Sequence record: PZ338878.1
Length of the DNA: 64,000 bases
Reading direction: 5' to 3' (one strand)
DNA from: a phage
Position numbers and translations under genes: made by a program. The notes beneath the pieces were generated by a model. The model saw only the letters and a program-made list of their open reading frames with translations. It did not search any database and was not told the origin of the DNA. Below are positions 7,838 to 62,226 of this stretch, one piece after another; position 1 is the first letter of the stretch; each line of letters begins with the position of its first letter.

Positions 7838-8632
7838 TTACGCTTTTGCTCCGAATTTTTTAACCCACTCACCAAACTCTTCAGATAACAATTTATCGTA
7901 AAGTTCTTCATCAGACAAGGACAAATCTGCAATACCGATAAAATCAACATTATCGTACTCTTTTGCCAAGTCTTTCAGGAATTTAAAGTTTGCATTACCT
8001 ACACCAACCATAAACCAGTAAACAGGCGTATTGCGGTGTTTGTTCAGTAAGCTACGTACTGCTGAAGTATCCATGTTTTCCCCGTCAGTTTGGAAGAAAA
8101 TCATTGCAGGAGTACGATCAACTTGTGCATCAGTATCTACAACCTGTTCTACAACAGTACGTGTTACTTCTACAAGTTCTTTTTTACCAGTTAGTTTAGC
8201 AAGGAAACCCTTAGCTGGGACTTCTTCATACTCAACGACTTCGCGTGTAATATTTTTCATAGGTACACTACCGAAGTATGTATCATAGATCTCCTGCATT
8301 ACTGGAGCATAAGCAGTACCACCATTGATGCAAACATTAGACATGCAAGAGCCGACATAATCATCATACACATCAGCCGTTGCAGGAGGCAGTTCAAAAG
8401 AAGAACTATTGAAAGCCCACATGTCAATCTGTGCATTGTCATCAAACTTCATACCAAACGGCAGCAGTTTACCTACAAAATCACTAACAGTGCCATCACG
8501 ATACAGCTCACACATACTACCCGAAATATCTAAGGCGCTACCGACACGAAGAACAACATCGTTAATCTTTTTCTTACGCAGAGATACAGTAAGAGTTTCT
8601 TGACGTTTTTTAAGACTGATTTTATTGGACAT
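7838..8632 (-). CDS. von Willebrand factor A (vWA) domain protein, TerY/TerF-like
   Basis: 264 aa; MIDAS motif DISGSM, then GGT, FFQTDGE, MVGVG; N-terminus ISLKKRQETLTVSLRKK echoes the TerD N-terminus ISLKKGSSEKVSLKK. Confidence 0.6.
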   Translation of the reverse strand: MSNKISLKKRQETLTVSLRKKKINDVVLRVGSALDISGSMCELYRDGTVSDFVGKLLPFGMKFDDNAQIDMWAFNSSSFELPPATADVYDDYVGSCMSNVCINGGTAYAPVMQEIYDTYFGSVPMKNITREVVEYEEVPAKGFLAKLTGKKELVEVTRTVVEQVVDTDAQVDRTPAMIFFQTDGENMDTSAVRSLLNKHRNTPVYWFMVGVGNANFKFLKDLAKEYDNVDFIGIADLSLSDEELYDKLLSEEFGEWVKKFGAKA

Positions 8633-8903: not shown

Positions 8904-9459
8904 TGTCTTCTCCTTTACCTGCCCTCCAGCCTAAATAGAAAGCCTCTCTGGTGATCTTTTGCAACTCGTTTAAAGAGATAGTTACAACTAAATTATCTTC
9001 AATTTCTAGCTTTGAGTCTTCTTCTGTCTCAATGCAAGTATTATGCACTTTGTGGTAAGGATTGTCAACACGTTTAAATTTATTATTTTCAGTGCTGAAG
9101 AAGCAATCTGGATCTTCTTCTCCATCACCCCAACCCTGGTTAGGGTCTTCTTCAGATCTTTCTGTTGGGATCTCACCTGTAAAGTGCTCTTCTAATACCA
9201 TAGCGATACCATCTCCAAGATCGGAAGAGAACATCAAATTACAAACTTCTTCCCAAGGCATAGACCACTTAAATCTTTTACGATTACCATGTTTATCTTC
9301 TTCGTTAGAGAAAACACTACCATAGCTATCATAATTGCCATACATCTCTTCAACAACTTTACCACCTTTCAAAAGAAATAGGTAGCAAGGAGAACCATCG
9401 AAAGAGGTAGAAAGAGCAGCATTGCCAGACTCTTTGCACAAGAAACTAAAACACCCCAT
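8896..9459 (-). CDS. hypothetical protein (187 aa, acidic)
   Basis: ORF track; no motif. Confidence 0.4.
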   Translation of the reverse strand: MGCFSFLCKESGNAALSTSFDGSPCYLFLLKGGKVVEEMYGNYDSYGSVFSNEEDKHGNRKRFKWSMPWEEVCNLMFSSDLGDGIAMVLEEHFTGEIPTERSEEDPNQGWGDGEEDPDCFFSTENNKFKRVDNPYHKVHNTCIETEEDSKLEIEDNLVVTISLNELQKITREAFYLGWRAGKGEDSA

Positions 9460-9878: not shown

Positions 9879-10982
9879 TTAAAGTAGACCACGTTTAACA
9901 GTTTGAATCATACCATCTTCAAGAGATTGCACTTCTTGAATGTAATCAATACGAGCAGCACGGGCTTCAGTGTTGATTCGGTTAGTTTCTTCCAACATTT
10001 TAACTAAGTTTTCTTGATCGCGACGTAATGTTTCAATATCCAATACTTGACGATTAGCAAGTTGCGTAGCTTCAATTTGGTTTTGTGCAGCCAGATCACT
10101 ACCCATTGCAATAGCAGCATTAAATTCATTCAGTACATTGTTCTGTGTATCGGCTGCTTTCTTCTGGCGTAGACTTTCAATATACATAGAAAAGTTTGCA
10201 GAGTAAGCAGGAATAACATTATTCACAATATTACGGGCTGATCGCATCAAACTTGCAGATACTTTCTGCATACTTTGTACACGTGGCCCCATCTGAACAC
10301 ACAGTAAACGCAAGGCTTTCAGGTCTGCAATACGAATTTCAAGCAGATCCATAGTATCACGAGTACGTTGACGCTCTTCTACTTCATTTTCAGGTAGTGT
10401 ATTAAGGCGAACTTCTTCTTTTTCATAAGTAGCTGTTAGAAGCTCTATATCCCTGTTTAAGCTAAGAGCATATTTTGCAATAGCCTCTTCTAAACGTTGC
10501 AGATATCGTAAAGAATCTTCTTCTTTTTTCAAGTCTGTTTGGAGTGTCTTTACCAAACCTTCAATACGATTATTGATGGTGTCAAATTCACCAAACAAAT
10601 CTTCTTTCATACCTAATACTTTCTTAACTAGTTTACCTAAGCCTTTAGATTGTTTAATAGAATTAGGATCAAGTTGCTTTGCTTGCTTAATAAGTGCAGT
10701 TAAACGCTCACTCATTTCATCTCCCTGAGATGAACGCTGGTGTTTAAGCACTTCCGCATTAAGGTTACGAAGAGTAAGTCCTGCATCAGCACCAACCTGT
10801 TCAATCTCTTCACGAGACATTGGAGGCAGCATTTGTACAGGTCGTGCAACAGCAGGGGCATATACAGGGCTTGCATCCATAGCAGTTGGAGCAAACAAAG
10901 ACTTACTTTTTTCTGTTGTTGCCGTGAATACACTCATTTCAGACGGTTTGCTTTTTACGGCACTGATAAAAGGACTGGACAT
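9879..10982 (-). CDS. TelA-like protein (toxic-anion-resistance / KlaA family)
   Basis: 367 aa; long helical coiled-coil body and N-terminal region resembling TelA; call rests on overall pattern rather than one motif; SD GGAGGA. Confidence 0.5.
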   Translation of the reverse strand: MSSPFISAVKSKPSEMSVFTATTEKSKSLFAPTAMDASPVYAPAVARPVQMLPPMSREEIEQVGADAGLTLRNLNAEVLKHQRSSQGDEMSERLTALIKQAKQLDPNSIKQSKGLGKLVKKVLGMKEDLFGEFDTINNRIEGLVKTLQTDLKKEEDSLRYLQRLEEAIAKYALSLNRDIELLTATYEKEEVRLNTLPENEVEERQRTRDTMDLLEIRIADLKALRLLCVQMGPRVQSMQKVSASLMRSARNIVNNVIPAYSANFSMYIESLRQKKAADTQNNVLNEFNAAIAMGSDLAAQNQIEATQLANRQVLDIETLRRDQENLVKMLEETNRINTEARAARIDYIQEVQSLEDGMIQTVKRGLL

Positions 10983-12760: not shown

Positions 12761-13738
12761 TTAAGCAACAGACTGGTCTTCTTTTTCAGGGAAGATTAAA
12801 CTTGCAATAACACCCAGCCCCAGAGTACCTAACACAATATACATACTGATCGTCGGATCAATGTGTGCTGGCAGGAAACTCACTTTTGCGTGCAGAGTTT
12901 CTGCAAACGGGTGATACATCAGTTTTACACCCACAAATACCAGGACTACGATAACTGCTTTCTCCAGATGAACCAAATATTTCAGTGCAACACTAAGGAC
13001 AAAGAACAGAGCACGCAGACCTAAAATTGCACACAGCATTGAAGAAAATACAAGCAGAGGTTCTTGTGTCACTGCAATTACTGCTGGAACAGAGTCTACT
13101 GCAAAAATTACGTCAACCATTTCCATTACAAATACACAAACCAATGCAGGAGTTGCTACACGAACACCATTTTTGATTGTGAAGAACTTCTCACCATCCA
13201 TCTGATCAGATACAGGGAACAGCTTACGAACAATGCGAGTAGCCCAGTGCTTAGAGTAATCAACTTCTGCGTCATTATCTCCAGCAAATACCATTTTAGC
13301 TGCACAGAAAAGGATGACCGCACCGAAGAAGATATTAACATACCAACCCAAACTCAACAAGTAAGTGCCTACTGCTACAAACACACCTCGGAAGACAATC
13401 GCACCTGCAATACCCCAAAGTAGAATCTTGTGTTGCAAGTGTGTGCTTTTAATACCAAAACTTGCGAATACTGCCACAAATACTACTAAGTTATCTACAG
13501 AAAGAGATTTCTCCAACACATACCCACTCAAAAACAAGCTCGCAAAATCAGCACCGTGTTGGAAGTATACAAAACCATAGTAGGCTAACGATACCCCAAT
13601 CCAGAAAATTGACCAGCCAATTGCAGATTTAAATGAAATTTCTTTGTTTTCTCTGTGTCCAAAGAAATCAATACAAATCGACAAGACTAAAATACCCACT
13701 AAAACAACCACATCAATAATTGGGAAACCCAGTTGCAT
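12761..13738 (-). CDS. TerC-family integral membrane protein
   Basis: 325 aa, multi-pass hydrophobic; YVLEKSLSVDNLVVFVAVF is the TerC signature; SD AGAGGAG. Confidence 0.8.
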   Translation of the reverse strand: MQLGFPIIDVVVLVGILVLSICIDFFGHRENKEISFKSAIGWSIFWIGVSLAYYGFVYFQHGADFASLFLSGYVLEKSLSVDNLVVFVAVFASFGIKSTHLQHKILLWGIAGAIVFRGVFVAVGTYLLSLGWYVNIFFGAVILFCAAKMVFAGDNDAEVDYSKHWATRIVRKLFPVSDQMDGEKFFTIKNGVRVATPALVCVFVMEMVDVIFAVDSVPAVIAVTQEPLLVFSSMLCAILGLRALFFVLSVALKYLVHLEKAVIVVLVFVGVKLMYHPFAETLHAKVSFLPAHIDPTISMYIVLGTLGLGVIASLIFPEKEDQSVA

Positions 13739-13757
13739 TCTTTTCTCCTCTTTAATG

Positions 13758-13776
13758 CGGAGGACAATCCTCCGCT
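13758..13776 (-). promoter_or_regulatory. stem-loop in 5-prime UTR of TerC gene
   Basis: gcggagg-acaat-cctccgc perfect 7-bp stem, about 15 nt upstream of the TerC SD. Confidence 0.35.
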
Positions 13777-13815
13777 CTATGTCGTATACTATAAACTGTT
13801 TTTAAAGAAAGTCAA

Positions 13816-36247: not shown

Positions 36248-36465
36248 TATTTTGAAAATTTTTATTTTTATAAAAAGGGGTGTGGGTTTCATGTACGGAA
36301 ATCCACCCTCTGAATAATATATCCAGAGTAAATATTATTCTGTACTCTGTTAATAAAGTATTTAATTTGTTTGTTGGACTATGGTATCTGATCTTTAAAA
36401 GACATACTATCTCTTAACTACTACTTATAACAGAACAGTAAAATCATTTTTATAAAAAGGACAAA

Positions 36466-36665
36466 ATTATTTAAAGTTTTTACAGATTTTTGGCTACAAA
36501 TTTTGAAAATGAAAAGTTCAAGTTTGGTCAAAATTATTTAAAGTTTTTGTATGTATTTCTATCCAGATTTTGAAAATGAAAACTTCAATTTTTTAAAAAT
36601 TCCCCAGTTTATTTAAAGTTTTTTTGCCTTTTTCCGTAGAAAAATCAAAAATGAAAAGTTCAATT
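36466..36665 (+). repeat. three tandem direct repeats of about 67-73 bp
   Basis: Each unit has ATTATTTAAAGTTTTT ... TTTGAAAATGAAAAGTTCAA; units start near 36466, 36533 and 36605. Confidence 0.7.
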
Positions 36666-36686
36666 TCGTGTTTTTATAGGTGTGTT

Positions 36687-36799
36687 AATGAGAATCATTT
36701 TCGTTTGTAAATGAGAATCATTATCATTTAACTATGTAAGTGATAATCATTCTCAGTAAGAGAATGAGAATCATTAGCAAATGAGAATTTTTCTCATTT
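36687..36799 (+). promoter_or_regulatory. cluster of five Fur-box-like palindromes (AATGAGAATCATT core)
   Basis: Copies at 36687-36699, 36710-36722, about 36741-36755 (GTGATAATCATTCTC), 36763-36775, and AATGAGAAtttTTCTCATT at 36779-36799. Confidence 0.5.
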
Positions 36800-37039
36800 A
36801 CAGAATAACGCGCAGGGGCGGTGTTTGTCTCGCGCTCCCGTGTCCCCTCGCCATACAATAAGAATAGCATAACCAACAACAAAAGCAAGCGATTATTTTT
36901 ATCTTTACATTTCTTTACAAATTTATTTTAGACGAGCTACCGGCGATCAACCTTCCAACCAGGGCCGCCTGGTATGTTAGCCCCGCCTTTACGCCGTGGG
37001 GGTGGCGTTTCCTCTTCTGTATGTAAAACAGTATAAGCC

Positions 37040-37438: not shown

Positions 37439-37499
37439 TTGACGTTCCTCACCTGGTAGCGTAGTATTCATCTTGTCGAGGGGCGGCAATAGTGCCGCT
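37439..37499 (+). promoter_or_regulatory. sigma70-like promoter + 5-prime UTR stem-loop (variant)
   Basis: TTGACG, 17 nt, TAGTAT, then hairpin gcggca-at-ag-tgccgc at about 37482-37499, then SD and ATG at 37523. Confidence 0.5.
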
Positions 37500-37522
37500 C
37501 ATAACAGAAGAGAGAAATAATC

Positions 37523-37795
37523 ATGGCATCATATAGCGCATCAATGATCGTAATGGGTATCACTGGTAAACCTATGCGCGGTGGCGGATCTTTCGCTAAC
37601 ATCAACATTGACGGGCGTTTATCCCTGGACGCAGCGATCACAGTGGCACGGGAAACATTTAAAAAAGAATGTAATTTCAATAAACAAGATTATCTCGGTT
37701 TTGCTATTGAAAAAACCGCGCGCTTTGTGGATTATAAAAGCCCGAAAATGATCGACACTACACTAAAAGCGCAAGATGTAGCGTTTTTGCTTTAA
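37523..37795 (+). CDS. hypothetical protein (90 aa)
   Basis: ORF track; promoter and hairpin upstream. Confidence 0.5.
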   Translation: MASYSASMIVMGITGKPMRGGGSFANINIDGRLSLDAAITVARETFKKECNFNKQDYLGFAIEKTARFVDYKSPKMIDTTLKAQDVAFLL

Positions 37796-37798
37796 GGT

Positions 37799-37860
37799 TT
37801 GACACTGAAAAATAATTGGGTAATATATACGACATAAGGCGGGGAAATGGTTTCCCCGCC
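37799..37860 (+). promoter_or_regulatory. sigma70-like promoter + conserved 5-prime UTR stem-loop
   Basis: TTGACA, 17 nt, AATATA, then GGCGGGGAAA-tgg-TTTCCCCGCC (10-bp stem) at 37838-37860. Confidence 0.6.
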
Positions 37861-37882
37861 AAATCAAAGAAAGGGTAATGCA

Positions 37883-38245
37883 ATGAGCAAGCAAATCAAT
37901 ACTATCATGTTTAATCTGGTATCTTTCCGCGATGACGTGAAAAATCTTTCGCGTGATGCAGTGGATGCACGGATCGAAAGCTATCGCACACAGATCGCAA
38001 CGTTACCGCTGAAACGTGATCAACATGCCGCTAATATGATGCTTGATGCTATGATTAAAAAGATGATTCAATGTGATCTTACCCTGGCTTATGAATATGC
38101 TGGCGATCTCTTTGTAACATACAGCAAGCCCGTACCAGGCATGAGCACCACGGAAGAATTGCATGCCTTAAATCTGCGACAAGATGCATGGGATAACATG
38201 CGCCGTGTTATGGTATGGGTAGAAAGCGGTAAAATTTACGAATAA
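37883..38245 (+). CDS. hypothetical protein (120 aa)
   Basis: Trimmed in frame to ATG 37883 (MSKQIN); the track start lies inside the hairpin loop. Confidence 0.5.
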   Translation: MSKQINTIMFNLVSFRDDVKNLSRDAVDARIESYRTQIATLPLKRDQHAANMMLDAMIKKMIQCDLTLAYEYAGDLFVTYSKPVPGMSTTEELHALNLRQDAWDNMRRVMVWVESGKIYE

Positions 38246-38251
38246 AAACGG

Positions 38252-38305
38252 TTGACATTGCACTAAAACCTGATAAGCTATCTTAAAGCGGGAATTGTTC
38301 CCGCT
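38252..38305 (+). promoter_or_regulatory. sigma70-like promoter + 5-prime UTR stem-loop
   Basis: TTGACA, 16 nt, TAAGCT, then agcggga-attgt-tcccgct at 38287-38305. Confidence 0.55.
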
Positions 38306-38323
38306 TATATAGGATAAAACTTT

Positions 38324-38470
38324 ATGAAACAATATGTAATGAGTATTCATACCAAAAACGGCGCTACTGTTACGACTCCGGCACGGTTTGCACTTGTAAA
38401 CCGTTGCAAGAGACTAAAACGAGAGCTAAAAAATAACCGTGCAACGGGCTTTAAACGCTGGGGAGGATAA
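38324..38470 (+). CDS. small basic protein (48 aa)
   Basis: Manual translation MKQYVMSIHTKNGATVTTPARFALVNRCKRLKRELKNNR... Confidence 0.35.
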   Translation: MKQYVMSIHTKNGATVTTPARFALVNRCKRLKRELKNNRATGFKRWGG

Positions 38471-38472
38471 TC

Positions 38473-38733
38473 TTGTTTTTTCTAAAAGTTTTTGATAATG
38501 TGATCGCTTTTGAACATGCTACAACGTTCGACCTGGCGAGATACGCTATCAGGTTTAAAGATAATGTTTATCCCCGTGCTGGCGGCGGTTACACTATTTT
38601 TAATCATCGCAACGCGCAACTGACTGATGTAACTAATCCAGATCCTGGAGTGTATCGGATAGGCTGGCTACCGTCAAAAGACGCTGCAAGCATGTTTAAG
38701 GTATGTAAACTACTAACAGAAGAGGCGAACTAA
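38473..38733 (+). CDS. hypothetical protein (86 aa), TTG start
   Basis: ORF track; GGGAGGA 5 nt upstream of the TTG. Confidence 0.4.
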   Translation: MFFLKVFDNVIAFEHATTFDLARYAIRFKDNVYPRAGGGYTIFNHRNAQLTDVTNPDPGVYRIGWLPSKDAASMFKVCKLLTEEAN

Positions 38734-38734
38734 C

Positions 38735-39289
38735 ATGGGGCGTGAATATGTGATCCAGTCCTGGGTAAAGCATGATGTAAATGATCCGCGCATAATACCA
38801 GATGACATGATCGATCACATGGTAGGGTATAGCGGGGAGCAGATAGGAAATCGAGCGGCAAAGAGCAACGGCAACACCAGGACGCGATCCGTTCGCCCTG
38901 GATGGCTGGCGAATGGTAACGCTGACATTGCAAGCGCCGCAGATCCAAGCGATGACGCTAAAAATAATCCCTTATACAACATTGATCCGGCTTTTAAGGT
39001 ATTGGAAGAGTATCCCGCTAAATTAGCCGCACTAGATAAGGCATACGAAGAAAAGCGCATGGCCTGGACTGTATACAACACCGCTAAAATGGTGCTAGAT
39101 GCAAAACTAATTAAAGCCCAGGAGAAGATCAATAAACTTGTTACCATAGCGCAAGAGGAAGACCAGGGCGACCAGGAGGAAGAGGAAGAAATCATGCCTA
39201 CTCTGGAAGAGGAAGAGATCCAGCCATACATGCCGACGGAAGAGGAAAAAAGACAAGCCTTAAAAAATTATGAAAATTGCATTGTGTAA
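38735..39289 (+). CDS. hypothetical protein (184 aa) with acidic Glu-rich tail
   Basis: ORF track; SD AGAAGAGG. Confidence 0.5.
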   Translation: MGREYVIQSWVKHDVNDPRIIPDDMIDHMVGYSGEQIGNRAAKSNGNTRTRSVRPGWLANGNADIASAADPSDDAKNNPLYNIDPAFKVLEEYPAKLAALDKAYEEKRMAWTVYNTAKMVLDAKLIKAQEKINKLVTIAQEEDQGDQEEEEEIMPTLEEEEIQPYMPTEEEKRQALKNYENCIV

Positions 39290-39292
39290 GGG

Positions 39293-39321
39293 TTGACATA
39301 TGCAAACAAGCCCCGTAATAT
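39293..39321 (+). promoter_or_regulatory. sigma70-like promoter
   Basis: TTGACA, 17 nt, TAATAT. Confidence 0.45.
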
Positions 39322-39369
39322 GTACCACATAGAGCGGGGCAACTTCTCAAAGGTGAAATAAAAAATCAG

Positions 39370-39397
39370 TTGACACCTGAAATCAGTAAGCTATAAT
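39370..39397 (+). promoter_or_regulatory. sigma70-like promoter (near-consensus)
   Basis: TTGACA, 16 nt, TATAAT, upstream of the ATG at 39435. Confidence 0.6.
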
Positions 39398-39434
39398 GCT
39401 TATATAGATTGAAACATTACTAAGGAATAAAAGC

Positions 39435-39614
39435 ATGGCTATTATTGCAAAAACTGAGATCGTAGGTTTAGATTCTATCCTCCTGGCATATGAGGAAGCT
39501 ATAGAAATGTATGTGGTTTCCTATGGTGATTATATCCGTGAATATAATTCTATTGATCTAGCTTTTGAATGCTATATTCGCCAGGTAAATAAAGCATACG
39601 ATGATTATCGTTAA
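39435..39614 (+). CDS. hypothetical protein (59 aa)
   Basis: Manual translation MAIIAKTEIVGLDSILLAYEEAIEMYVVSYGDYIREYNS...; SD AAGGAA. Confidence 0.4.
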   Translation: MAIIAKTEIVGLDSILLAYEEAIEMYVVSYGDYIREYNSIDLAFECYIRQVNKAYDDYR

Positions 39615-39633
39615 AAGTTTTAGTCTTGTGCTA

Positions 39634-39663
39634 TTGACAACGAACGATAGTACAAGCATAATA
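39634..39663 (+). promoter_or_regulatory. sigma70-like promoter
   Basis: TTGACA, 17 nt, CATAAT; no GC hairpin downstream. Confidence 0.45.
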
Positions 39664-39709
39664 ACTTTTATCGGGAACACTCCTAACTAATCAAAAGAGA
39701 TTAAAGATT

Positions 39710-40075
39710 ATGGCTAAAAATATCAATGTTTCTGCTTATGCTACCCTGGCTAACACTGCTAAAATTGAACTATCCAGCATTGAAGCGGTACATATTAGCG
39801 CCCGTCGCTGGTTTCAAAAGTCTTATGGTAATACTTATTTCTCTTTGATCGTTGACGTTGAGATCGGCGGTAAACTGATTGAAGTCGTTAACGTTCCGTT
39901 TCAATATGGTTATGGTGATCATTTTGATACCGTTGCCCTGGAAGAGTTTAGCAAGGTTATCAACCTGGAAGGTAAAGAGTTTTCAAATTATGCCTACCTT
40001 TCCCGTTTTTGCCGTGATAATGGGATCGCTGTATACAGTCATGCAAGCGATGTTAAACGCAAAAAAGATTTATAA
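39710..40075 (+). CDS. hypothetical protein (121 aa)
   Basis: ORF track. Confidence 0.5.
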   Translation: MAKNINVSAYATLANTAKIELSSIEAVHISARRWFQKSYGNTYFSLIVDVEIGGKLIEVVNVPFQYGYGDHFDTVALEEFSKVINLEGKEFSNYAYLSRFCRDNGIAVYSHASDVKRKKDL

Positions 40076-40080
40076 AAGTA

Positions 40081-40142
40081 TTGACAGCACGAATAAAAAG
40101 AGTAAAATGTTTCATATCAGGACGGGGGAATGGTTCCCCGCC
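40081..40142 (+). promoter_or_regulatory. sigma70-like promoter + 5-prime UTR stem-loop
   Basis: TTGACA, 16 nt, TAAAAT, then gacgggggaa-tgg-ttccccgcc at 40121-40142. Confidence 0.55.
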
Positions 40143-40161
40143 TATAACTAGGTATAATAAA

Positions 40162-40392
40162 ATGGCTAATATGTATATGACCGAAGTTAAAACCGTAAAA
40201 GATACTACTACCAATAAAACTACTTACTTACAGCGGATCTGCGGTGTATGGCAACGTATTAGTAAAGCAAAGTATTATAAATTAACATCATATGCTAATC
40301 GTTCGGATTCATTCCGTACTGAAATAAAAGGTAATAAAGTACACCAATACGGCACTTATTATTATTATAGCCTAGACGCGATTGCAATCTAA
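40162..40392 (+). CDS. hypothetical protein (76 aa)
   Basis: Trimmed in frame to ATG 40162 (MANMYMTEVK); the track start lies upstream of the promoter -10. Confidence 0.45.
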   Translation: MANMYMTEVKTVKDTTTNKTTYLQRICGVWQRISKAKYYKLTSYANRSDSFRTEIKGNKVHQYGTYYYYSLDAIAI

Positions 40393-40411
40393 GCATATTT
40401 TTAAAAAGCAC

Positions 40412-40470
40412 TTGCAAACTAGGTTTAAAGGCGTATAATGTTTTGCATAGAGAGCGGGAATAGTTCCCGC
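40412..40470 (+). promoter_or_regulatory. sigma70-like promoter + 5-prime UTR stem-loop
   Basis: TTGCAA, 16 nt, TATAAT, then gcgggaa-tag-ttcccgc at 40454-40470. Confidence 0.6.
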
Positions 40471-40494
40471 CTCACTGAAAAAGAGATTAACATC

Positions 40495-40734
40495 ATGGCT
40501 AAATCTAAAATGTACAACGGTCACAAAAACAAAACTCATTGGAATGTAAGCCTTTGGATTAATAACGATCCAGGTTTTTATAATATGGCAAAAGAATTTA
40601 TAGCCGTGAACAACAATAAAGATAACGCCGCGCGTGAAATGATGGCACTACTTAACGAAATGGGCCAAAATACTACGCCAGATGGCTATAAATTCAGTAA
40701 AACCAGTATCCGCGCCGCTATGGTAGGAATGTAA
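40495..40734 (+). CDS. hypothetical protein (79 aa)
   Basis: Trimmed in frame to ATG 40495 (MAKSKMYNG). Confidence 0.45.
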   Translation: MAKSKMYNGHKNKTHWNVSLWINNDPGFYNMAKEFIAVNNNKDNAAREMMALLNEMGQNTTPDGYKFSKTSIRAAMVGM

Positions 40735-40743
40735 TAAAAACAG

Positions 40744-40803
40744 TTGACAACGTTTTTTAATCTGATAAGATGTATCACATAGGGCGGGAAATGGTTTCCC
40801 GCC
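40744..40803 (+). promoter_or_regulatory. sigma70-like promoter + conserved 5-prime UTR stem-loop
   Basis: TTGACA, 16 nt, TAAGAT, then GGCGGGAAA-tgg-TTTCCCGCC at 40783-40803. Confidence 0.6.
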
Positions 40804-40825
40804 AAATCAAAGAAAGGTTAACATT

Positions 40826-41053
40826 ATGGCTATCGTTATTGTTCGCGTATCCGGAACGGTTGGAATCTCCCAGGTAGTAGCAGTTATCACAGAAAAGAAA
40901 GGGGATGATCTTCACTCCTCCTTGAATAGCTGGGCGGTCGCTAACTTTGGGCAATGGTCGAGCGTTGAGTACATCGAATCCTACCAGGTGCCAACGATTA
41001 GCCTAACCGATCTAAATGTTGATCGCTTGTTGTGCCTGGATCAATTAAACTAA
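40826..41053 (+). CDS. hypothetical protein (75 aa)
   Basis: ORF track; UTR between hairpin and ATG nearly identical to that of the gene at 37883. Confidence 0.45.
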   Translation: MAIVIVRVSGTVGISQVVAVITEKKGDDLHSSLNSWAVANFGQWSSVEYIESYQVPTISLTDLNVDRLLCLDQLN

Positions 41054-41061
41054 AAATAATA

Positions 41062-41119
41062 TTGACAAGATAACTAAAATCAGTAAAATGTAATGCATAG
41101 GGCGGCAATAGTGCCGCCC
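41062..41119 (+). promoter_or_regulatory. sigma70-like promoter + 5-prime UTR stem-loop
   Basis: TTGACA, 16 nt, TAAAAT, then gggcggca-atag-tgccgccc at 41100-41119. Confidence 0.6.
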
Positions 41120-41140
41120 CTAGTGAGAGAGATTATCAAA

Positions 41141-41356
41141 ATGGCTAATATCCGCACACTGTTAAAAAATGCAAGTCAAGTTTTATTTTCAGATGACGAG
41201 TATTTCAACAAAGACATTACAGGCGTGAAAAATTTAAAAGACGTGAAGGATGTTATCGGTATCCGTGGATCTTTACGTAAAGGTGACATATACGGTAACA
41301 AGGTGCAATATAAATTGTCAAAAGATTATGATTTTACTTTGACAATTATTTCATAA
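41141..41356 (+). CDS. hypothetical protein (71 aa)
   Basis: Trimmed in frame to ATG 41141 (MANIRTLL). Confidence 0.45.
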   Translation: MANIRTLLKNASQVLFSDDEYFNKDITGVKNLKDVKDVIGIRGSLRKGDIYGNKVQYKLSKDYDFTLTIIS

Positions 41357-41362
41357 AACTAC

Positions 41363-41423
41363 TTGCAAACCTGGTAAAATAAAGTAAACTATATTCATTA
41401 AGGCGGTGGAATAGCCCACCGCC
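41363..41423 (+). promoter_or_regulatory. sigma70-like promoter + 5-prime UTR stem-loop
   Basis: TTGCAA, 16 nt, TAAACT, then ggcggtgg-aatag-cccaccgcc at 41402-41423. Confidence 0.55.
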
Positions 41424-41446
41424 TAACAAAGAGAAGAGGAAACATC

Positions 41447-41617
41447 ATGATCACTTTCGCCACCCGTGAAGCCGCTCGCAACGTTGCACGTAAAGTTAAC
41501 GCCGCCAACCTGGGCGCTACGCTTAAAGCCCCGGTAAAAGATGAATCAGGAAAATGGATCTTTCCTGGTCTGCGTCACGCTGATAAGCTGGGAACATTAA
41601 CGTTAAAAAACAAATAA
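41447..41617 (+). CDS. hypothetical protein (56 aa)
   Basis: Manual translation MITFATREAARNVARKVNAANLGATLKAPVKDESGKW...; SD AGAGGAAA. Confidence 0.4.
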   Translation: MITFATREAARNVARKVNAANLGATLKAPVKDESGKWIFPGLRHADKLGTLTLKNK

Positions 41618-41623
41618 TATCCG

Positions 41624-41682
41624 TTGACAGTAGCATCATTTATAAGTAAAGTAACAACAACGGCGGGAAATGGTTTCCCGCC
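41624..41682 (+). promoter_or_regulatory. sigma70-like promoter + conserved 5-prime UTR stem-loop
   Basis: TTGACA, 17 nt, TAAAGT, then GGCGGGAAA-tgg-TTTCCCGCC at 41662-41682. Confidence 0.55.
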
Positions 41683-41702
41683 ATCAATAAAGAGATAAGA
41701 TT

Positions 41703-42062
41703 ATGAAATCAGTAAAAGCAATTAAAACTTACATTGTGTCGGCTATTTCTTTTGATGGTACTACAACCGAAAAAGAAAAGATCACCGAACTGATGCGCCG
41801 TTTTAACTCTGAATACTGGTATCCCGATAATCAAAAACGTTACAATCATAACATGACCAAGGCGATAGCCTCATGGTTACAAGGTTTACCGTCAGAAGTC
41901 AATATTGCTTTTGATTATAATGAGATCGATCACTTGTTAATTGAATGGAAGTGCATAAAAGAAACAAGCAAAGAAACAACCGTTACCCGTGAGCGGGAAA
42001 ATTATTGGTTATATATTGCAAGCATGATCGTAATCCTGGCAAAACAGCATAACGTGGCGTAA
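41703..42062 (+). CDS. hypothetical protein (119 aa)
   Basis: ORF track. Confidence 0.5.
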   Translation: MKSVKAIKTYIVSAISFDGTTTEKEKITELMRRFNSEYWYPDNQKRYNHNMTKAIASWLQGLPSEVNIAFDYNEIDHLLIEWKCIKETSKETTVTRERENYWLYIASMIVILAKQHNVA

Positions 42063-42076
42063 TTAAGAGGAAAAAC

Positions 42077-42214
42077 ATGAACGCATCACAGCAGATCGAA
42101 AAATTCAACCGCAGCAAGGCGCGTAAAAATTGGAACGAAGAGATCACCAAAAAAGGCGATAAGCGGAACAAAACAAAAAGAGATCGCAGTACAAAAAGAC
42201 ACTGGAACGAATAA
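42077..42214 (+). CDS. small basic protein (45 aa)
   Basis: Manual translation MNASQQIEKFNRSKARKNWNEEITKKGDKRNKTKRDR...; SD AAGAGGAAAAA. Confidence 0.35.
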   Translation: MNASQQIEKFNRSKARKNWNEEITKKGDKRNKTKRDRSTKRHWNE

Positions 42215-42218
42215 CAAA

Positions 42219-42243
42219 AAGGGCGCAATAAGCGCCCTTTTAG
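42219..42243 (+). terminator. intrinsic terminator
   Basis: agggcgc-aataa-gcgccct hairpin followed by TTTTA. Confidence 0.55.
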
Positions 42244-42332
42244 CTTATATAGAGGCTTGTTACCCATAGGCAATGGTAACGCCAGGGCAAGCCTATAAAT
42301 CAACGTTAGACAGCTTTACAGGAGCTTTAAAA

Positions 42333-42515
42333 ATGAAATTAAACGAAATAAGCAAGGCACTAGCCCAGGGTCAAAGGTTATGCGCCCGATATCGTGATCA
42401 ATATGGCTTCATGACTAGCGGCGTGATCCTGGGGATTGAAGGTAATAAAATTTTTATTGACACGTTGAAAAACGTTGTATATAGTGACAATATAATCTCA
42501 ATAAAACATATATGA
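42333..42515 (+). CDS. hypothetical protein (60 aa)
   Basis: Trimmed in frame to ATG 42333 (MKLNEISK, AGGAG upstream). Confidence 0.4.
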   Translation: MKLNEISKALAQGQRLCARYRDQYGFMTSGVILGIEGNKIFIDTLKNVVYSDNIISIKHI

Positions 42516-42523
42516 GGCAAGAA

Positions 42524-42925
42524 ATGAAAAAATTATTGATCGCTGGTTTAATCTCTTTTGGCATGGTTGGAACATCTAGCGCGGCGATATCCTCCACAGT
42601 AGCAGAATTAAGCGCCGTTGATGCAATGGAAAACGTCATGATCATTAATAACGCGATCCCCGATGAAATCATGGAGGATTCTCACATGATCGCTTATGGT
42701 GCTGTTACACAATTAACGGCAAAAATAGATAAATCTATTGTTAATGGCTTAAATGAAGATGTACCATGTGAAATTATTACCAGTGTGCTAACGACTCAAA
42801 ATTTTACGCCGTGGCTAAAAAGTATTCAAAAGGTACACAGCACCGCCGCAGATCGTAGCAATGAAAAACTAGTGTCAGCACTTGCAACGTATACCCTAGC
42901 AAAATGCACCGAAATAAAAGATTGA
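42524..42925 (+). CDS. secreted protein (signal peptide)
   Basis: Trimmed in frame to ATG 42524 (MKKLLIAGLISFGMVGTSSAA; GAGG 6 nt upstream). Confidence 0.45.
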   Translation: MKKLLIAGLISFGMVGTSSAAISSTVAELSAVDAMENVMIINNAIPDEIMEDSHMIAYGAVTQLTAKIDKSIVNGLNEDVPCEIITSVLTTQNFTPWLKSIQKVHSTAADRSNEKLVSALATYTLAKCTEIKD

Positions 42926-42972
42926 CAACATAGAAAGCACGTTATAAGATACACACAACAAAGGAGAACTAC

Positions 42973-43275
42973 ATGAACGGCATAGCTAAAACGTTTTTTC
43001 TTTTTTCTGGTGTAAATGATCCATCAATAAAAGTCGATAGCGTAAAAGAAAACAATACTATCACCGCTAAATTGTTTCAAGATGAAACAAATAACGTGCT
43101 AATCATTAATCTTAAAGAAATAACGAAAGGTTATTATACTATTGCTTACCATGCGATCTATCATGCTGGTACTAGCGAGGAAGTGCAAACAAGCAACAAC
43201 GAAAGCGCGGCGCTACCTGGTGATCTGGTGCTGGGCGTTATCAGTTTAATTGTCAATGATTTTTTTAAGGAGTAA
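42973..43275 (+). CDS. hypothetical protein (100 aa)
   Basis: ORF track; SD AAGGAG. Confidence 0.45.
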   Translation: MNGIAKTFFLFSGVNDPSIKVDSVKENNTITAKLFQDETNNVLIINLKEITKGYYTIAYHAIYHAGTSEEVQTSNNESAALPGDLVLGVISLIVNDFFKE

Positions 43276-43279
43276 AACC

Positions 43280-43375
43280 ATGCCCTATTTACATTTATTT
43301 TTCGGGATCTTATTGTCAGGATCTTTTTTCTTCTGTATACTTGTTTCTATTGTAAACCACGTTTTAAGACATTAA
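43280..43375 (+). CDS. small hydrophobic peptide (31 aa)
   Basis: Manual translation MPYLHLFFGILLSGSFFFCILVSIVNHVLRH; AAGGAG upstream. Confidence 0.25.
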   Translation: MPYLHLFFGILLSGSFFFCILVSIVNHVLRH

Positions 43376-43384
43376 GGAAACAGC

Positions 43385-43504
43385 ATGAAAATTATTCCCG
43401 TACAGTATAGCGTAATAAATCCAGCATATGAGGAAGGAAGGAAAACAAGCATGGCTTTATGTTGTATTACTACTATAGCCATGTTATTATATATTGTGTT
43501 TTAA
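43385..43504 (+). CDS. small membrane peptide (39 aa)
   Basis: Manual translation MKIIPVQYSVINPAYEEGRKTSMALCCITTIAMLLYIVF; AAGGAAA upstream. Confidence 0.25.
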   Translation: MKIIPVQYSVINPAYEEGRKTSMALCCITTIAMLLYIVF

Positions 43505-43533
43505 TAGGTTTTATAGTTGTACGCTTTAAAGGC

Positions 43534-43561
43534 TTTACAATTTTTTGTTATGCTTTAAAAT
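43534..43561 (+). promoter_or_regulatory. sigma70-like promoter
   Basis: TTTACA, about 16 nt, TAAAAT, upstream of the gene at 43605. Confidence 0.4.
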
Positions 43562-43604
43562 ATATCTTGAAAACGGCAAAGGCCGCAAACAAAAGGGTAA
43601 AATT

Positions 43605-43928
43605 ATGAAATCTGTGATCGGTGTTTATTTGGATAACTCTGATTTTTTCTATCATCGTGCGCGTTTCCTTGATGCGATTGAAATGATAGAATCAGGCTTT
43701 AAAGAGTATCGCCTTGCACATGATGACCTGGAAGCATTACAGGGTAATAGTGTTTTTACATTGCAAGCTAAAGCACTATGCAAAAGCCGGATCGACATTG
43801 CAAGCAAAAAGATAGAACGCGGCATGTCCTGGTTGCGCACCGCAGAAATCAACATGGGGCAATGGTACGGCGAAAACTTAGAAAATAAACTCACTTTTGT
43901 AAATGTAGAAAATATTAAAGATTATTGA
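43605..43928 (+). CDS. hypothetical protein (107 aa)
   Basis: Trimmed in frame to ATG 43605 (MKSVIGVY). Confidence 0.45.
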   Translation: MKSVIGVYLDNSDFFYHRARFLDAIEMIESGFKEYRLAHDDLEALQGNSVFTLQAKALCKSRIDIASKKIERGMSWLRTAEINMGQWYGENLENKLTFVNVENIKDY

Positions 43929-43990
43929 TTGACAGCACACCTGATAAGTAATATATTGTATCTCATAGAGCGGGGAAATGGTTTCCCCGC
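43929..43990 (+). promoter_or_regulatory. sigma70-like promoter + conserved 5-prime UTR stem-loop
   Basis: TTGACA, 17 nt, TATATT, then GCGGGGAAA-tgg-TTTCCCCGC at 43970-43990. Confidence 0.6.
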
Positions 43991-44010
43991 CTTAACAGAA
44001 GAGATAAGAT

Positions 44011-44295
44011 ATGAAAATCACAAAAGCACTTTTCAACTATGCAGCACGTCGCGGATTATGCTTATCCGTTGAAAATTTAGGAAAAGAAGATTTTTTGTGC
44101 TTTTGGGAGCTTGAGAATGATAATGAGTGGATCTTCTCTTATTCTATCTGCAAAGATCAAAACGGTTGCTTGTTAACCTGGCGCGGTAATATCTATTTGC
44201 CGGAAGAAATAAAACAAGAATTACCAGGCACGATCATGACTGAGAAACAGCTTAAGGAAGTGATCAATTTTGTAGGGCAAAACATTAAAAAATAA
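44011..44295 (+). CDS. hypothetical protein (94 aa)
   Basis: ORF track. Confidence 0.45.
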   Translation: MKITKALFNYAARRGLCLSVENLGKEDFLCFWELENDNEWIFSYSICKDQNGCLLTWRGNIYLPEEIKQELPGTIMTEKQLKEVINFVGQNIKK

Positions 44296-44296
44296 T

Positions 44297-44357
44297 TTGA
44301 CAGTAGGCAAACAACGTAGTAAAGTTTATCACATAGGGCGGGAAATGGTTTCCCGCT
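44297..44357 (+). promoter_or_regulatory. sigma70-like promoter + conserved 5-prime UTR stem-loop
   Basis: TTGACA, 17 nt, TAAAGT, then GGGCGGGAAA-tgg-TTTCCCGC at about 44336-44357. Confidence 0.55.
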
Positions 44358-44379
44358 CACAGCAGAAGAGAAACAAATC

Positions 44380-44550
44380 ATGATCCCGACTATGTTTTAC
44401 GTATCGCGCAAAGGTCACAATATTTTTTGGTCTGAAGATTTAAATGAAGCCATGACGTTTGCCCGTGATCGTGTTGCTATCGGTGGCGTTAATATTACCG
44501 TAACCGATGAAAACGGCATTGAATACTATAACGGCGACGATGAAGAGTAA
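44380..44550 (+). CDS. hypothetical protein (56 aa)
   Basis: Manual translation MIPTMFYVSRKGHNIFWSEDLNEAMTFARDRVAIGG... Confidence 0.4.
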   Translation: MIPTMFYVSRKGHNIFWSEDLNEAMTFARDRVAIGGVNITVTDENGIEYYNGDDEE

Positions 44551-44557
44551 TTAATAA

Positions 44558-44579
44558 GGCGGGGGGAGTATTCCCCGCC
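44558..44579 (+). promoter_or_regulatory. 5-prime UTR stem-loop (variant) without obvious promoter
   Basis: ggcgggg-ggagtat-tccccgcc directly after the preceding stop and before the gene at 44609. Confidence 0.45.
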
Positions 44580-44608
44580 ATCAATTCACAACTAAAAGAG
44601 AAATCATC

Positions 44609-44803
44609 ATGGCGCTTAAAAAACTAACAAGCAATACTCGTTGGGATGAAATTGACGGGGAAGTATACATTTTCGCCCGTAAACCAGGTGATCAAAAATG
44701 GTCAAAGGCTTTTACTTGTCACCCTGCAACAATAGATCTAATAAAAAGTAAAGGTTTACGTGAAGCAGTAGCGAGAAGTTTACTGATCCCTTGTAAAAAA
44801 TAG
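44609..44803 (+). CDS. hypothetical protein (64 aa)
   Basis: ORF track. Confidence 0.45.
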   Translation: MALKKLTSNTRWDEIDGEVYIFARKPGDQKWSKAFTCHPATIDLIKSKGLREAVARSLLIPCKK

Positions 44804-44804
44804 T

Positions 44805-44864
44805 TTGACAATATGCGGTTATCTGGTAATATATACCACGTAGGGCGGGAAATGGTTTCCCGCC
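44805..44864 (+). promoter_or_regulatory. sigma70-like promoter + conserved 5-prime UTR stem-loop
   Basis: TTGACA, 16 nt, TAATAT, then GGCGGGAAA-tgg-TTTCCCGCC at 44844-44864. Confidence 0.6.
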
Positions 44865-44882
44865 AGAATAGAGAGAACTAAA

Positions 44883-44987
44883 ATGATTATTCTTACCATG
44901 ATGTGCGCGGCGGTTATTATTCCTTTGATAACGCTTATTGTTTCTGAGATCGATGATCTTCTCTTTGAAAGAAGTTTAAAAAAGTGA
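44883..44987 (+). CDS. small membrane peptide (34 aa)
   Basis: Manual translation MIILTMMCAAVIIPLITLIVSEIDDLLFERSLKK. Confidence 0.3.
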   Translation: MIILTMMCAAVIIPLITLIVSEIDDLLFERSLKK

Positions 44988-45049
44988 TTGACAACGGCTA
45001 ATAAGCTGATAATATGTATCACATAGGGCGGGGCAATAAGGCAACGCCC
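44988..45049 (+). promoter_or_regulatory. sigma70-like promoter + 5-prime UTR stem-loop (variant)
   Basis: TTGACA, 16 nt, TAATAT, then gggcg-gggcaataaggcaa-cgccc at 45026-45049. Confidence 0.5.
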
Positions 45050-45067
45050 ACTAATGAGGGTAGCATC

Positions 45068-45172
45068 ATGTTAGAGAAAATTTTCACGGTTGTAATAGTG
45101 GGCCTGGCGTTATCGGTTGGAGTGATTGCAACTATGGCTAACATGATTCTATCTTCCCACGGTATCGGCTAA
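45068..45172 (+). CDS. small membrane peptide (34 aa)
   Basis: Manual translation MLEKIFTVVIVGLALSVGVIATMANMILSSHGIG. Confidence 0.3.
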   Translation: MLEKIFTVVIVGLALSVGVIATMANMILSSHGIG

Positions 45173-45173
45173 G

Positions 45174-45398
45174 GTGAAACAAGTGATCACGAATAAGACA
45201 GGTAAAACAGAATTTTTACGTAACTTGCAGATCGGCAAGCCTGAGATCTGGTATTGCACTAAAACACCACGTGACGAAATGAAAGATTTTACCGCTACTT
45301 TACAACGTGTTAAAATATCTATCACACAGAAAAAAGCCTTGATAGTTGCAGAAAACGAGATCCCGCAAACTATTATCATTGTTGAGCGTACAGCATGA
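45174..45398 (+). CDS. hypothetical protein (74 aa), GTG start
   Basis: ORF track; alternative GTG at 45183 has AAGGTGA upstream. Confidence 0.35.
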   Translation: MKQVITNKTGKTEFLRNLQIGKPEIWYCTKTPRDEMKDFTATLQRVKISITQKKALIVAENEIPQTIIIVERTA

Positions 45399-45781
45399 AA
45401 ACAGAAAACATTAACGAAATGATCAACGGCTATAAAGAAGCCTTTATTTTTGCCGAACCAGCGACGGATCACAATGGGGAATATATTGAGAATCTAGACG
45501 ATTATGATTTTTCTTCTAGCGCCCTGGAACGTATTACCAGCGATGTGACCGCCTTTTGTAGTGCCAATGTTGCCGCTATCTCTGAGGCAATGAGCGACGG
45601 CGCTACAGCAAACCAGATCGGGAATGATTTACATTTCACCCGCAACGGGCACGGCGTAGGCTTTTGGGATCGCCCTGAAATATACACCACTAACACGGCG
45701 AACCGCCTAACAAATGCCGCTAAATTAATGCCATCGGTGCATGCTTACATTGGTGAAGATAATTTGATTTATATTGAATAA
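45395..45781 (+). CDS. hypothetical protein (128 aa)
   Basis: ORF track; ATGA overlap with upstream gene. Confidence 0.45.
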   Translation: MKTENINEMINGYKEAFIFAEPATDHNGEYIENLDDYDFSSSALERITSDVTAFCSANVAAISEAMSDGATANQIGNDLHFTRNGHGVGFWDRPEIYTTNTANRLTNAAKLMPSVHAYIGEDNLIYIE

Positions 45782-45787
45782 AAAGTA

Positions 45788-45846
45788 TTGACACCGATCC
45801 CCAATATGGTATTATTTACCACGTAGGCGGGAAATGGTTTCCCGCC
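45788..45846 (+). promoter_or_regulatory. sigma70-like promoter + conserved 5-prime UTR stem-loop
   Basis: TTGACA, 17 nt, ATTATT, then GGCGGGAAA-tgg-TTTCCCGCC at 45826-45846. Confidence 0.6.
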
Positions 45847-45869
45847 AGGTAATCAAAAAGGTAAATACT

Positions 45870-46259: not shown

Positions 46260-46273
46260 TACACGGTAAAAGA

Positions 46274-46300
46274 AAGGGGCGCACTAAGCGCCCTTTTTTG
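46274..46300 (+). terminator. intrinsic terminator
   Basis: gggcgc-actaa-gcgccc hairpin followed by TTTTTTG. Confidence 0.65.
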
Positions 46301-46970: not shown

Positions 46971-46999
46971 TTGACACCGGATCACGCTTACATTATTAT
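46971..46999 (+). promoter_or_regulatory. sigma70-like promoter
   Basis: TTGACA, 17 nt, TATTAT; no GC hairpin downstream. Confidence 0.5.
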
Positions 47000-47045
47000 T
47001 TATCACGTAGGGCAAATCATTTTAAACGGTAAACGAGGAAACACC

Positions 47046-62183: not shown

Positions 62184-62209
62184 ACAAATAAAGCCCCTGG
62201 TTGGGGCTT
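62184..62209 (-). terminator. intrinsic terminator
   Basis: aagcccc-tggtt-ggggctt hairpin followed by UAUUUGU on the minus strand. Confidence 0.5.
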
Positions 62210-62226
62210 TGGTTAAGTTTTACAGA

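Follow-up and report, generated by a model that had tools for sequence, protein, structure and literature searches.

Repeated promoter-stem-loop units among the small genes of a phi92-type phage, read as candidate PeSL-like cassettes

Promoter-hairpin units of the block

We analyzed a 64,000-nt stretch of phage DNA (sequence record PZ338878.1), hereafter referred to as the window. Between 37.4 and 45.9 kb, its plus strand carries a block of small open reading frames (ORFs) interspersed with copies of a unit composed of a sigma70-type promoter, a GC-rich stem-loop (hairpin), and a Shine-Dalgarno sequence (SD). The window is AT-rich (G+C content of 35 to 41%), and its genes are directed along the minus strand up to ~32 kb and along the plus strand from ~32 to 60 kb. 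The 8.5-kb region is 95 to 97% identical to phi92-group Escherichia coli myophages (alia, ECGD1, KKE7M, and others). A total of 294 phage records match it, and the phi92 group falls in the genus Justusliebigvirus of the Stephanstirmvirinae.

The block contains 19 promoters of the form TTGACA-16/17-TAnnnT, which agree with the consensus at 9 to 12 of 12 positions. A mechanical scan for GC-rich stem-loops revealed 14 clean hairpins (all those listed below apart from the remnant in the decayed unit and the imperfect hairpin of unit B). Fourteen promoters have a hairpin downstream, clean in 13 cases and imperfect in one (45027-45048). The original prediction, made from the sequence alone, had placed about 15 hairpins each between a promoter and a small ORF. 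This arrangement is found at the 14 promoters; the remaining clean hairpin, at 44558-44579, has no promoter of its own. Sequence reading and the stem-loop scan located all six predicted copies of GGCGGG(G)AAAtggTTT(C)CCCGCC, as well as two predicted variants (41100-41119 and 41401-41424), at the positions given for them. The units are as follows.

37439..37522, plus strand: unit 1; promoter 37439-37467 (TTGACG-17-TAGTAT), hairpin 37481-37500 (GGGCGGCA-atag-TGCCGCTC, one G.U pair), SD, ATG 37523
37799..37882, plus strand: unit 2; promoter 37799-37826, hairpin 37838-37860 (10 bp, -18.8 kcal/mol), ATG 37883
38252..38323, plus strand: unit 3; promoter 38252-38279, hairpin 38286-38306 (AAGCGGGAA-ttg-TTCCCGCTT), ATG 38324
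39293..39345, plus strand: decayed unit; promoter 39293-39321, CACATAG, broken hairpin (AGCGGGGCAAC...), no ORF directly after; the alia counterpart retains a 5-bp stem
40081..40161, plus strand: unit; promoter 40081-40108, hairpin 40121-40142 (base imperfect), ATG 40162
40412..40494, plus strand: unit; promoter 40412-40439 (TTGCAA-16-TATAAT), hairpin 40453-40471, ATG 40495 (DUF7249 protein)
40744..40825, plus strand: unit; promoter 40744-40771, canonical hairpin 40783-40803 (GGCGGGAAA-tgg-TTTCCCGCC), ATG 40826
41062..41140, plus strand: unit; promoter 41062-41089, hairpin 41100-41119 (GGGCGGCA-atag-TGCCGCCC), ATG 41141
41363..41446, plus strand: unit; TTGCAA 41363-41368 and TAAACT 41385-41390 (coordinates read by hand), hairpin 41401-41424 (AGGCGGTGG-aatagc-CCACCGCCT), ATG 41447
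41624..41702, plus strand: unit; promoter 41624-41652, hairpin 41662-41682, ATG 41703
43929..44010, plus strand: unit; promoter 43929-43957, hairpin 43969-43991, ATG 44011
44297..44379, plus strand: unit; promoter 44297-44325, hairpin 44336-44358 (10 bp, one G.U pair), ATG 44380
44558..44579, plus strand: promoterless hairpin (GGCGGGGGG-agta-TTCCCCGCC), 7 nt past the stop codon of the upstream ORF and 29 nt before ATG 44609
44805..44882, plus strand: unit A; promoter 44805-44832, hairpin 44844-44864, ATG 44883 (34-amino acid ORF); cassette absent in alia
44988..45067, plus strand: unit B; promoter 44988-45015, imperfect hairpin 45027-45048 (GGGCG-GGGCAATAAGGCAA-CGCCC), ATG 45068
45788..45869, plus strand: unit; promoter 45788-45815, hairpin 45826-45846, ATG 45870

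The intergenic spaces holding these units are 78 to 102 nt long. The -35 element begins 0 to 19 nt after the upstream stop codon and is directly preceded by A-rich runs (e.g., aaaaacgg, ataaaaacag, and aaaaaatag). The distance from the end of the -10 element to the first paired base is 6 to 13 nt (median, 11 nt), and the motif CA(C/T)(A/G)TAG stands before most hairpins, in agreement with the frequent "cacatag" noted earlier. Family hairpins are 19 to 24 nt long, with stems of 7 to 10 bp, and they end 17 to 23 nt before the ATG in the units with a promoter. The tails that follow them are purine-rich (e.g., AAATCAAAG and ATAACAGAAG). Each predicted 5' untranslated region (UTR) folds into one hairpin of -13 to -19 kcal/mol (z-scores of -2.0 to -5.5 compared to dinucleotide shuffles), while the SD and the start codon stay unpaired. 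The ATG contained in the AAATGG loop was dismissed as a start codon, since it lacks usable spacing from an SD and, of two units checked, only one has it in frame with the following ORF.

Transcription in E. coli starts ~7 to 8 nt past the -10 element. If host RNA polymerase starts at this distance here, the stem would begin at about +2 to +6, behind a leader of 2 to 5 nt. The predicted location of the hairpin at or near the 5' end of the transcript is thus borne out as geometry, with the start position itself deduced from the promoter.

The array is not a product of chance: the canonical 21-mer has nine matches with up to three mismatches, compared to 0.00 expected from 100 shuffles. Beyond what had been predicted, the repeat covers the entire unit. 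The similarity extends for up to 70 nt of a unit of ~80 nt that comprises promoter, hairpin, and SD, and ~15 copies are present in direct orientation. All ten cassette ORFs tested against PHROGs fall into families of unknown function, and DUF7249 is the sole match among the ten tested against Pfam.

When the 64-kb window was searched with a covariance model with the filters off, sense-strand members of the family were confined to the block and to one unit on the opposite strand:

13737..13815, minus strand: isolated unit; -35 starting at 13815, ACGACATAGA, hairpin 13757-13775 (GCGGAGGA-ttg-TCCTCCGC), SD, ATG of a TerC-like membrane protein gene; kept in alia

We also asked whether a 5' hairpin is a general trait of all sigma70-like promoters of the phage. 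This was rejected: few such promoters outside the block have one (13815 and 62255 on the minus strand of the window; 146656 on the plus strand and a few more in alia), many of the promoter-like matches in this check being intragenic, and the trait is essentially block-specific. At 62189-62211 on the minus strand (alia 102690-102712), a hairpin with a T-run (AAAGCCCC-aacca-GGGGCTTT) is located at ~+10 of a sigma70-like promoter and is followed by an SD and an ATG. It looks like a bidirectional terminator and would hence be a terminator-type hairpin within a 5' UTR.

Base pairing and occurrence in relatives

The hairpins share a GCGG...CCGC clamp, within which the inner stem occurs as GAAA/TTTC, CA/TG, GAA/TTC, GGAAA/TTTCC, TGG/CCA, or AGGA/TCCT. 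The first pair inside the clamp may be G-C, C-G, T-A, or A-T, and the copies differ in how far apart the two halves of the clamp are (8 to 13 nt). To quantify the conservation of pairing, a covariance model was built from a seed of eight copies and run on the window and on eight loci of relatives (nine loci in total), yielding 65 sense-strand matches, 56 of them distinct. Among the distinct copies, 96.9% of the cells are standard pairs, six of the nine pairs show changes on both sides, and 40 cells are compensatory. None of 500 column shuffles matched these figures, and sliding the 3' partner by one to three columns lowered pairing to 37 to 81%. Since the alignment was fitted to the model, these counts lean toward structure; the raw stem table agrees with them. 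The covariance model (R1) had a narrow seed and missed the GGGCGGCA and GGCGGTGG variants of the window or scored them low even with the filters off. MAFFT alignments of the hairpins (A1 and A2) placed gaps in one arm only, and RNAalifold recovered four pairs from A1; they were replaced by the model-fitted alignment.

RNA folding and covariation analysis, which had been proposed as a check of the hairpin, thus gave a single hairpin per 5' UTR and a pairing kept by compensatory changes. The latter indicate that the pairing is under selection.

The complete alia genome (147 kb) has one block of the family, 8.3 kb long and corresponding to that of the window, and it shares the isolated minus-strand unit. 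With one unit as a BLAST query, 144 phage records were matched, including phi92-like and phAPEC8-like phages, Citrobacter phage Tr1, rV5-like Vequintavirus, and two Certrevirus phages. Promoter-anchored scans of the relatives' loci revealed units of this architecture, closely packed in Stephanstirmvirinae and thinly spread in Vequintavirinae. In Tr1 and in an rV5-like phage, the spacing between the -10 element and the hairpin is ~10 nt despite diverged intervening sequence. The exact 21-mer occurs in only three stretches, on two contigs, in IMG/VR. Absence of the element from close relatives had been named as an outcome that would speak against function; the element is present there. Together with the covariation, its presence in relatives from two subfamilies supports the original proposal of a conserved, functional element.

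Four matching records, MG065639, MG065656, MG065645, and MG065689, are deposited as "Campylobacter phage" (A150, C3, A145, and A110a, respectively) and are 96% identical to E. coli phi92-like phages. Their host label is probably wrong or reflects contamination.

In the phAPEC8 record (JX561091), 20-mers such as ATAGGGCGGCAATGGTGCCG are annotated as "putative promoter determined with PHIRE" at 6813-6832, 7452-7471, 8341-8360, 9357-9376, 10211-10230, and 10643-10662. They span the family hairpin from its 5' arm through the loop into the 3' arm, and a sigma70 promoter is located just upstream of each. Judging from the sequence, the label is wrong: the annotated repeat is the hairpin, and the promoter precedes it. 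The phi92 record has ribosome-binding sites (RBSs) as the only regulatory features of the block, and the elements listed in the rV5 genome paper are promoters and terminators, with no such hairpin among them. Literature searches on Stephanstirmvirinae and rV5-like phages yielded no transcriptome and no account of the hairpin motif.

The apical AAT(G/A)G shows far stronger conservation than the stem below it and is unlike the GAAA and TTCG loops that are common in terminators of this phage. This raises the possibility that the GC clamp with its AAUGG/AAUAG apex is an RNA tag by which a phage or host RNA-binding protein co-regulates the early mRNAs, for example, through timed shut-off, translational control, processing, or antitermination. 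Confinement of the element to one regulon-like block per genome and its fixed distance of 17 to 23 nt to the start codon are consistent with such a tag. However, recent common descent together with gene conversion between copies can also account for a conserved loop, and there are family members with other loops (TTG, AGTA, TGT, AAC, ACGG, CGGT, and AATCCC). No candidate RNA-binding protein was found, the cassette ORFs tested against PHROGs and Pfam have no recognizable domains, and a search of 36 to 47.5 kb against Rfam (E up to 1) returned two sub-threshold chance matches and no family. We regard a protein-read tag as rather unlikely. Equally doubtful is its bolder form, in which the stem-loop would be an address label shared by the early mRNAs of phi92-, phAPEC8-, and rV5-like phages and read by a dedicated factor that switches the whole early regulon. 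Were it true, a mobile cis element would mark out these early genes as a post-transcriptional regulon and would be more than a passive stabilizer.

Cassette junctions and possible roles of the hairpin

To determine where related phages differ, the 37.0- to 47.5-kb region was compared by BLAST with alia, phi92, tuntematon, and phAPEC8, and the breakpoints were merged to 30 distinct ones. The ends of homology blocks fall at units. Thirteen of the 30 breakpoints lie within units (12.5% expected, p = 3e-5), eight of the 30 are located within 5 nt of a hairpin (5% expected, p = 9e-5), and several further ones are within 15 nt of a -35 element.

Three gains or losses of cassettes were resolved to the nucleotide, and in each the junction lies inside a chimeric unit. 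Unit 1, which is chimeric compared to phi92 and alia, fuses, at GGGG|CGG, the promoter of one phi92/alia unit with the hairpin of the one after it, and the intervening ORF (phi92 gp225) is missing. In the second case, the window continues past the promoterless hairpin at 44558 with the alia sequence that follows the next alia hairpin, so that a 340-bp alia cassette (ORF, promoter, and hairpin) is missing from the window. In the third, the window has two units (A and B) around the 34-amino acid ORF (44883-44987), whereas alia has one chimeric unit, composed of the unit A promoter and the unit B hairpin and leader. These alignments provide direct evidence of cassette exchange at the units and indicate that the units mark points at which genes are swapped in and out between related phages. 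A further candidate junction adjoins the block:

46971..46999, plus strand: truncated unit; promoter followed by TCACGTAGGGC, i.e., the conserved start region and the first four hairpin bases, divergent afterward (46971-47045)

The promoter at 46971, just outside the block, has no hairpin, and a breakpoint of phi92 homology falls at 46997, within the truncated unit. The latter looks like a unit cut by recombination inside the 5' arm.

Similar behavior is known for the PeSL (promoter-early stem-loop) cassettes of the T4-type phages RB49/phi1, PST, and nt-1, in which ORFan cassettes are excised or inserted by recombination between the motifs on either side (Arbiol et al. 2010, PMC2839356; Comeau et al. 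2014, PMC4122927). We consider it moderately probable that the units described here are PeSL-like portable early-gene cassettes in which the stem-loop acts as an RNA structure and the unit as a whole as a recombination linker, the latter role going beyond the original prediction. The block would then be a hyperplastic early-gene region assembled from portable expression cassettes. Each cassette would consist of an A-rich stretch, a near-consensus sigma70 promoter, an initially transcribed CA(C/T)(A/G)TAG, a 7- to 10-bp GC-clamped stem-loop, an unstructured purine-rich leader of ~20 nt with the SD, and a small ORF of unknown function. We infer the early timing of the block, as we do the transcription starts. 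The ~15 direct repeats of ~80 nt would serve as homology patches at which ORF cassettes are removed, added, or exchanged by recombination, both inside one phage and from one phage to another, which would explain the turnover of cassettes.

In its own transcript, the 5' hairpin would limit the access of RppH and RNase E to the mRNA 5' end. Both enzymes require single-stranded 5' ends, which is the accepted cause of stabilization by 5' stem-loops (PMC3997798). Among the functions originally listed, that of a 5' stabilizer fits best, and an effect on RNA stability would be expected. A second context, not considered in the original prediction, is RNA reading through from upstream promoters, where the hairpin would be located between cistrons just upstream of each RBS. 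There, it could stop decay or scanning that arrives from the 5' side, cap the preceding cistron against 3' exonucleases once the RNA has been cleaved, and hold the RBS open and clear of upstream sequence. The promoterless hairpin at 44558 fits this intercistronic role. Hairpins that recur between cistrons before each ORF could also be RNase III sites at which polycistronic early RNA is cut to monocistronic units, as in T7, and processing by this enzyme was on the original list. The T7 R sites and other substrates of E. coli RNase III span about two helical turns, while the stems here have only 7 to 10 bp, and we hold this role to be very improbable.

Several observations weigh against portable cassettes with a 5' RNA structure. 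Four promoters inside the block (39370, 39634, 42457, and 42922) are free of hairpins, and a fifth (39293) retains only a broken remnant at 39331. The unpaired leader of 2 to 5 nt may still admit RppH, and literature searches found no transcription start, RNA end, or half-life for the phi92-type group. Enrichment of breakpoints in conserved intergenic motifs is partly expected where the neighboring genes are non-homologous. Since an A.C mismatch on the sense strand is a G.U pair on the antisense strand, we compared the two to distinguish selection at the RNA level from that at the DNA level; 60 unique promoter-proximal hairpins contain 14 sense-strand G.U pairs and 8 A.C mismatches, counts that are non-independent and dominated by a few recurrent variants. 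Last, and also beyond the original prediction, Certrevirus early sigma70 promoters have a GC hairpin in the spacer between -35 and -10 (TTGACA-CCGGGGCC-acct-GGCCCC-ATAAT), as seen in Enterobacter phage vB_ExiM_F4M1E (3600-9500) and Pectobacterium phage PcCB7V (5800-7520). Located there, the hairpin cannot form the 5' end of the transcript made from its promoter, which argues that placement at the 5' end is not the sole way in which these hairpins work. In the former phage, a unit at ~8969-9030 combines a spacer hairpin with a downstream family hairpin.

Because they would be present only in upstream transcripts, the Certrevirus spacer hairpins are compatible with the original interpretation of PeSLs, in which the hairpin is an attenuator or terminator that stops or damps transcription from upstream cassettes and leaves each ORF mainly under the control of its own promoter. 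Nearly all cassette ORFs of the window do have their own promoter, and the hairpin at 44558 comes straight after a stop codon. When an RB49/phi1 PeSL stem-loop was placed before lacZ, expression was cut about as much as by rrnB T1 (PMC2839356). However, an intrinsic terminator is a GC hairpin followed by a U-tract, and every family hairpin on the sense strand is without one; none of those on the plus strand was called a terminator there. U-tracts are found at the terminators of this phage, among many others at the following two:

42217..42241, both strands: bidirectional intrinsic terminator (AAAAGGGCGC-aataa-GCGCCCTTTT, T-run), which divides the block
46271-46299: second such terminator, with a T-run

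In addition, each hairpin lies downstream of its own predicted start, and efficient termination would abort the mRNA of its own cassette. We judge attenuation to be possible but unlikely. A 2026 preprint on promoter-terminator coupling was considered and set aside, as it treats terminators upstream of promoters and is inapplicable to these hairpins.

The palindromes could also act as DNA, either as operators for a dimeric phage repressor of early promoters or as cruciform or hairpin targets of recombination. Most copies are perfect palindromes at about +3 to +25, the classic position of an operator, rearrangement junctions lie in or beside them, and the asymmetry between G.U and A.C does not speak decisively for RNA. 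The spacing of the clamp halves is, however, tolerable for a hairpin but not for a dimeric DNA operator. The inner stem changes fully (GAAA, CA, TGG, and AGGA) with compensation, which argues for structure rather than fixed half-sites, and one copy is away from any promoter. Stems of 7 to 10 bp with loops of 3 to 4 nt extrude poorly as cruciforms. A role at the DNA level is thus improbable, and we return to the portable cassette with an RNA stem-loop as the preferred interpretation.

If this interpretation is correct, it would matter for phi92-, phAPEC8-, and rV5-like myophages, which are common candidates for therapy and biocontrol and whose early regions consist almost entirely of unannotated small ORFs. 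It would provide a rule for locating early transcription units and correcting annotations such as the phAPEC8 "PHIRE promoters." It would also point to a general route by which virulent phages turn over host-takeover and anti-defense genes and supply a compact natural part for phage engineering, i.e., a strong promoter with a 5' hairpin and an insulated RBS.

A noncoding AT-rich stretch at 36250-36900 adjoins the block upstream. It contains three tandem repeats of ~70 nt (36446-36666) and about six iteron-like copies of AATGAGAATCATT, an inverted pair among them (36667-36802). The counterpart in alia is annotated as repeat_region only. This stretch could be a replication origin or control region.

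Comparison with known systems

Like PeSLs, the units are intergenic composites of ~70 to 100 nt in which a consensus sigma70 early promoter is preceded by AT-rich sequence and accompanied by a G/C-rich stem-loop and an SD. Many copies stand together among small ORFans, and where close relatives differ by an indel, the motifs flank it and a chimeric unit is left behind. In contrast to PeSLs, the units belong to a Stephanstirmvirinae/Vequintavirinae lineage that is not T4-like, and their copies belong to a single sequence family whose apical AATGG/AATAG is conserved. The position of the stem-loop also differs. In PeSLs of RB49/phi1, it is mostly located between -35 and -10 or over -10 and has been read as a terminator or attenuator based on a lacZ assay. 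Here, it always follows the -10 element and extends to about +25, in what would be the 5' UTR of the cassette's own mRNA. PeSLs are defined by a stem-loop within or upstream of the promoter core (in the spacer, over a box, ahead of the -35 element, or just before the start), from where it acts on upstream transcripts; this placement is found in Certrevirus relatives but not in the window. Termination of transcription by the stem-loop and circular excision products (mini-circles) are further PeSL traits; lack of a U-tract in the window hairpins argues against intrinsic termination.

The ompA and papA 5' stabilizing stem-loops (Emory, Bouvet, Arnold, Bricker, Belasco; reviewed in PMC3997798) resemble the units in having a stable hairpin a few nucleotides from the predicted 5' end and an open RBS after it. 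They are single unrelated hairpins whose stabilizing effect was demonstrated experimentally, whereas here a repeated family precedes ~15 genes and the 5' ends are predicted from geometry. The leader of phage T7 gene 10 has a 5' stem-loop in a similar position. Repetitive extragenic palindromic (REP) and related stem-loop stabilizers, such as that of malE-malF, are GC-rich intercistronic palindromes without a U-tract that block 3' exonucleases and give differential stability within operons. The hairpins described here are likewise GC-rich palindromes between cistrons without a U-tract; REPs, however, are host chromosomal elements with another consensus, often paired, and uncoupled from promoters.

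The phAPEC8 "PHIRE promoters" (JX561091) are the same element; its hairpin, covariation, and cassette behavior are unremarked in the record. Overall, the element is uncharacterized in the searchable literature and is in concept a PeSL variant in a new lineage, with a consistent 5'-UTR placement that suggests a role of the stem-loop different from that in PeSLs. If portable cassettes are the correct interpretation, the shuffling of ORFans by promoter and stem-loop cassettes extends beyond T4-like phages and recurs with another geometry in an unrelated lineage, and the fixed placement in the 5' UTR makes the long-standing question of PeSL stem-loop function directly testable.

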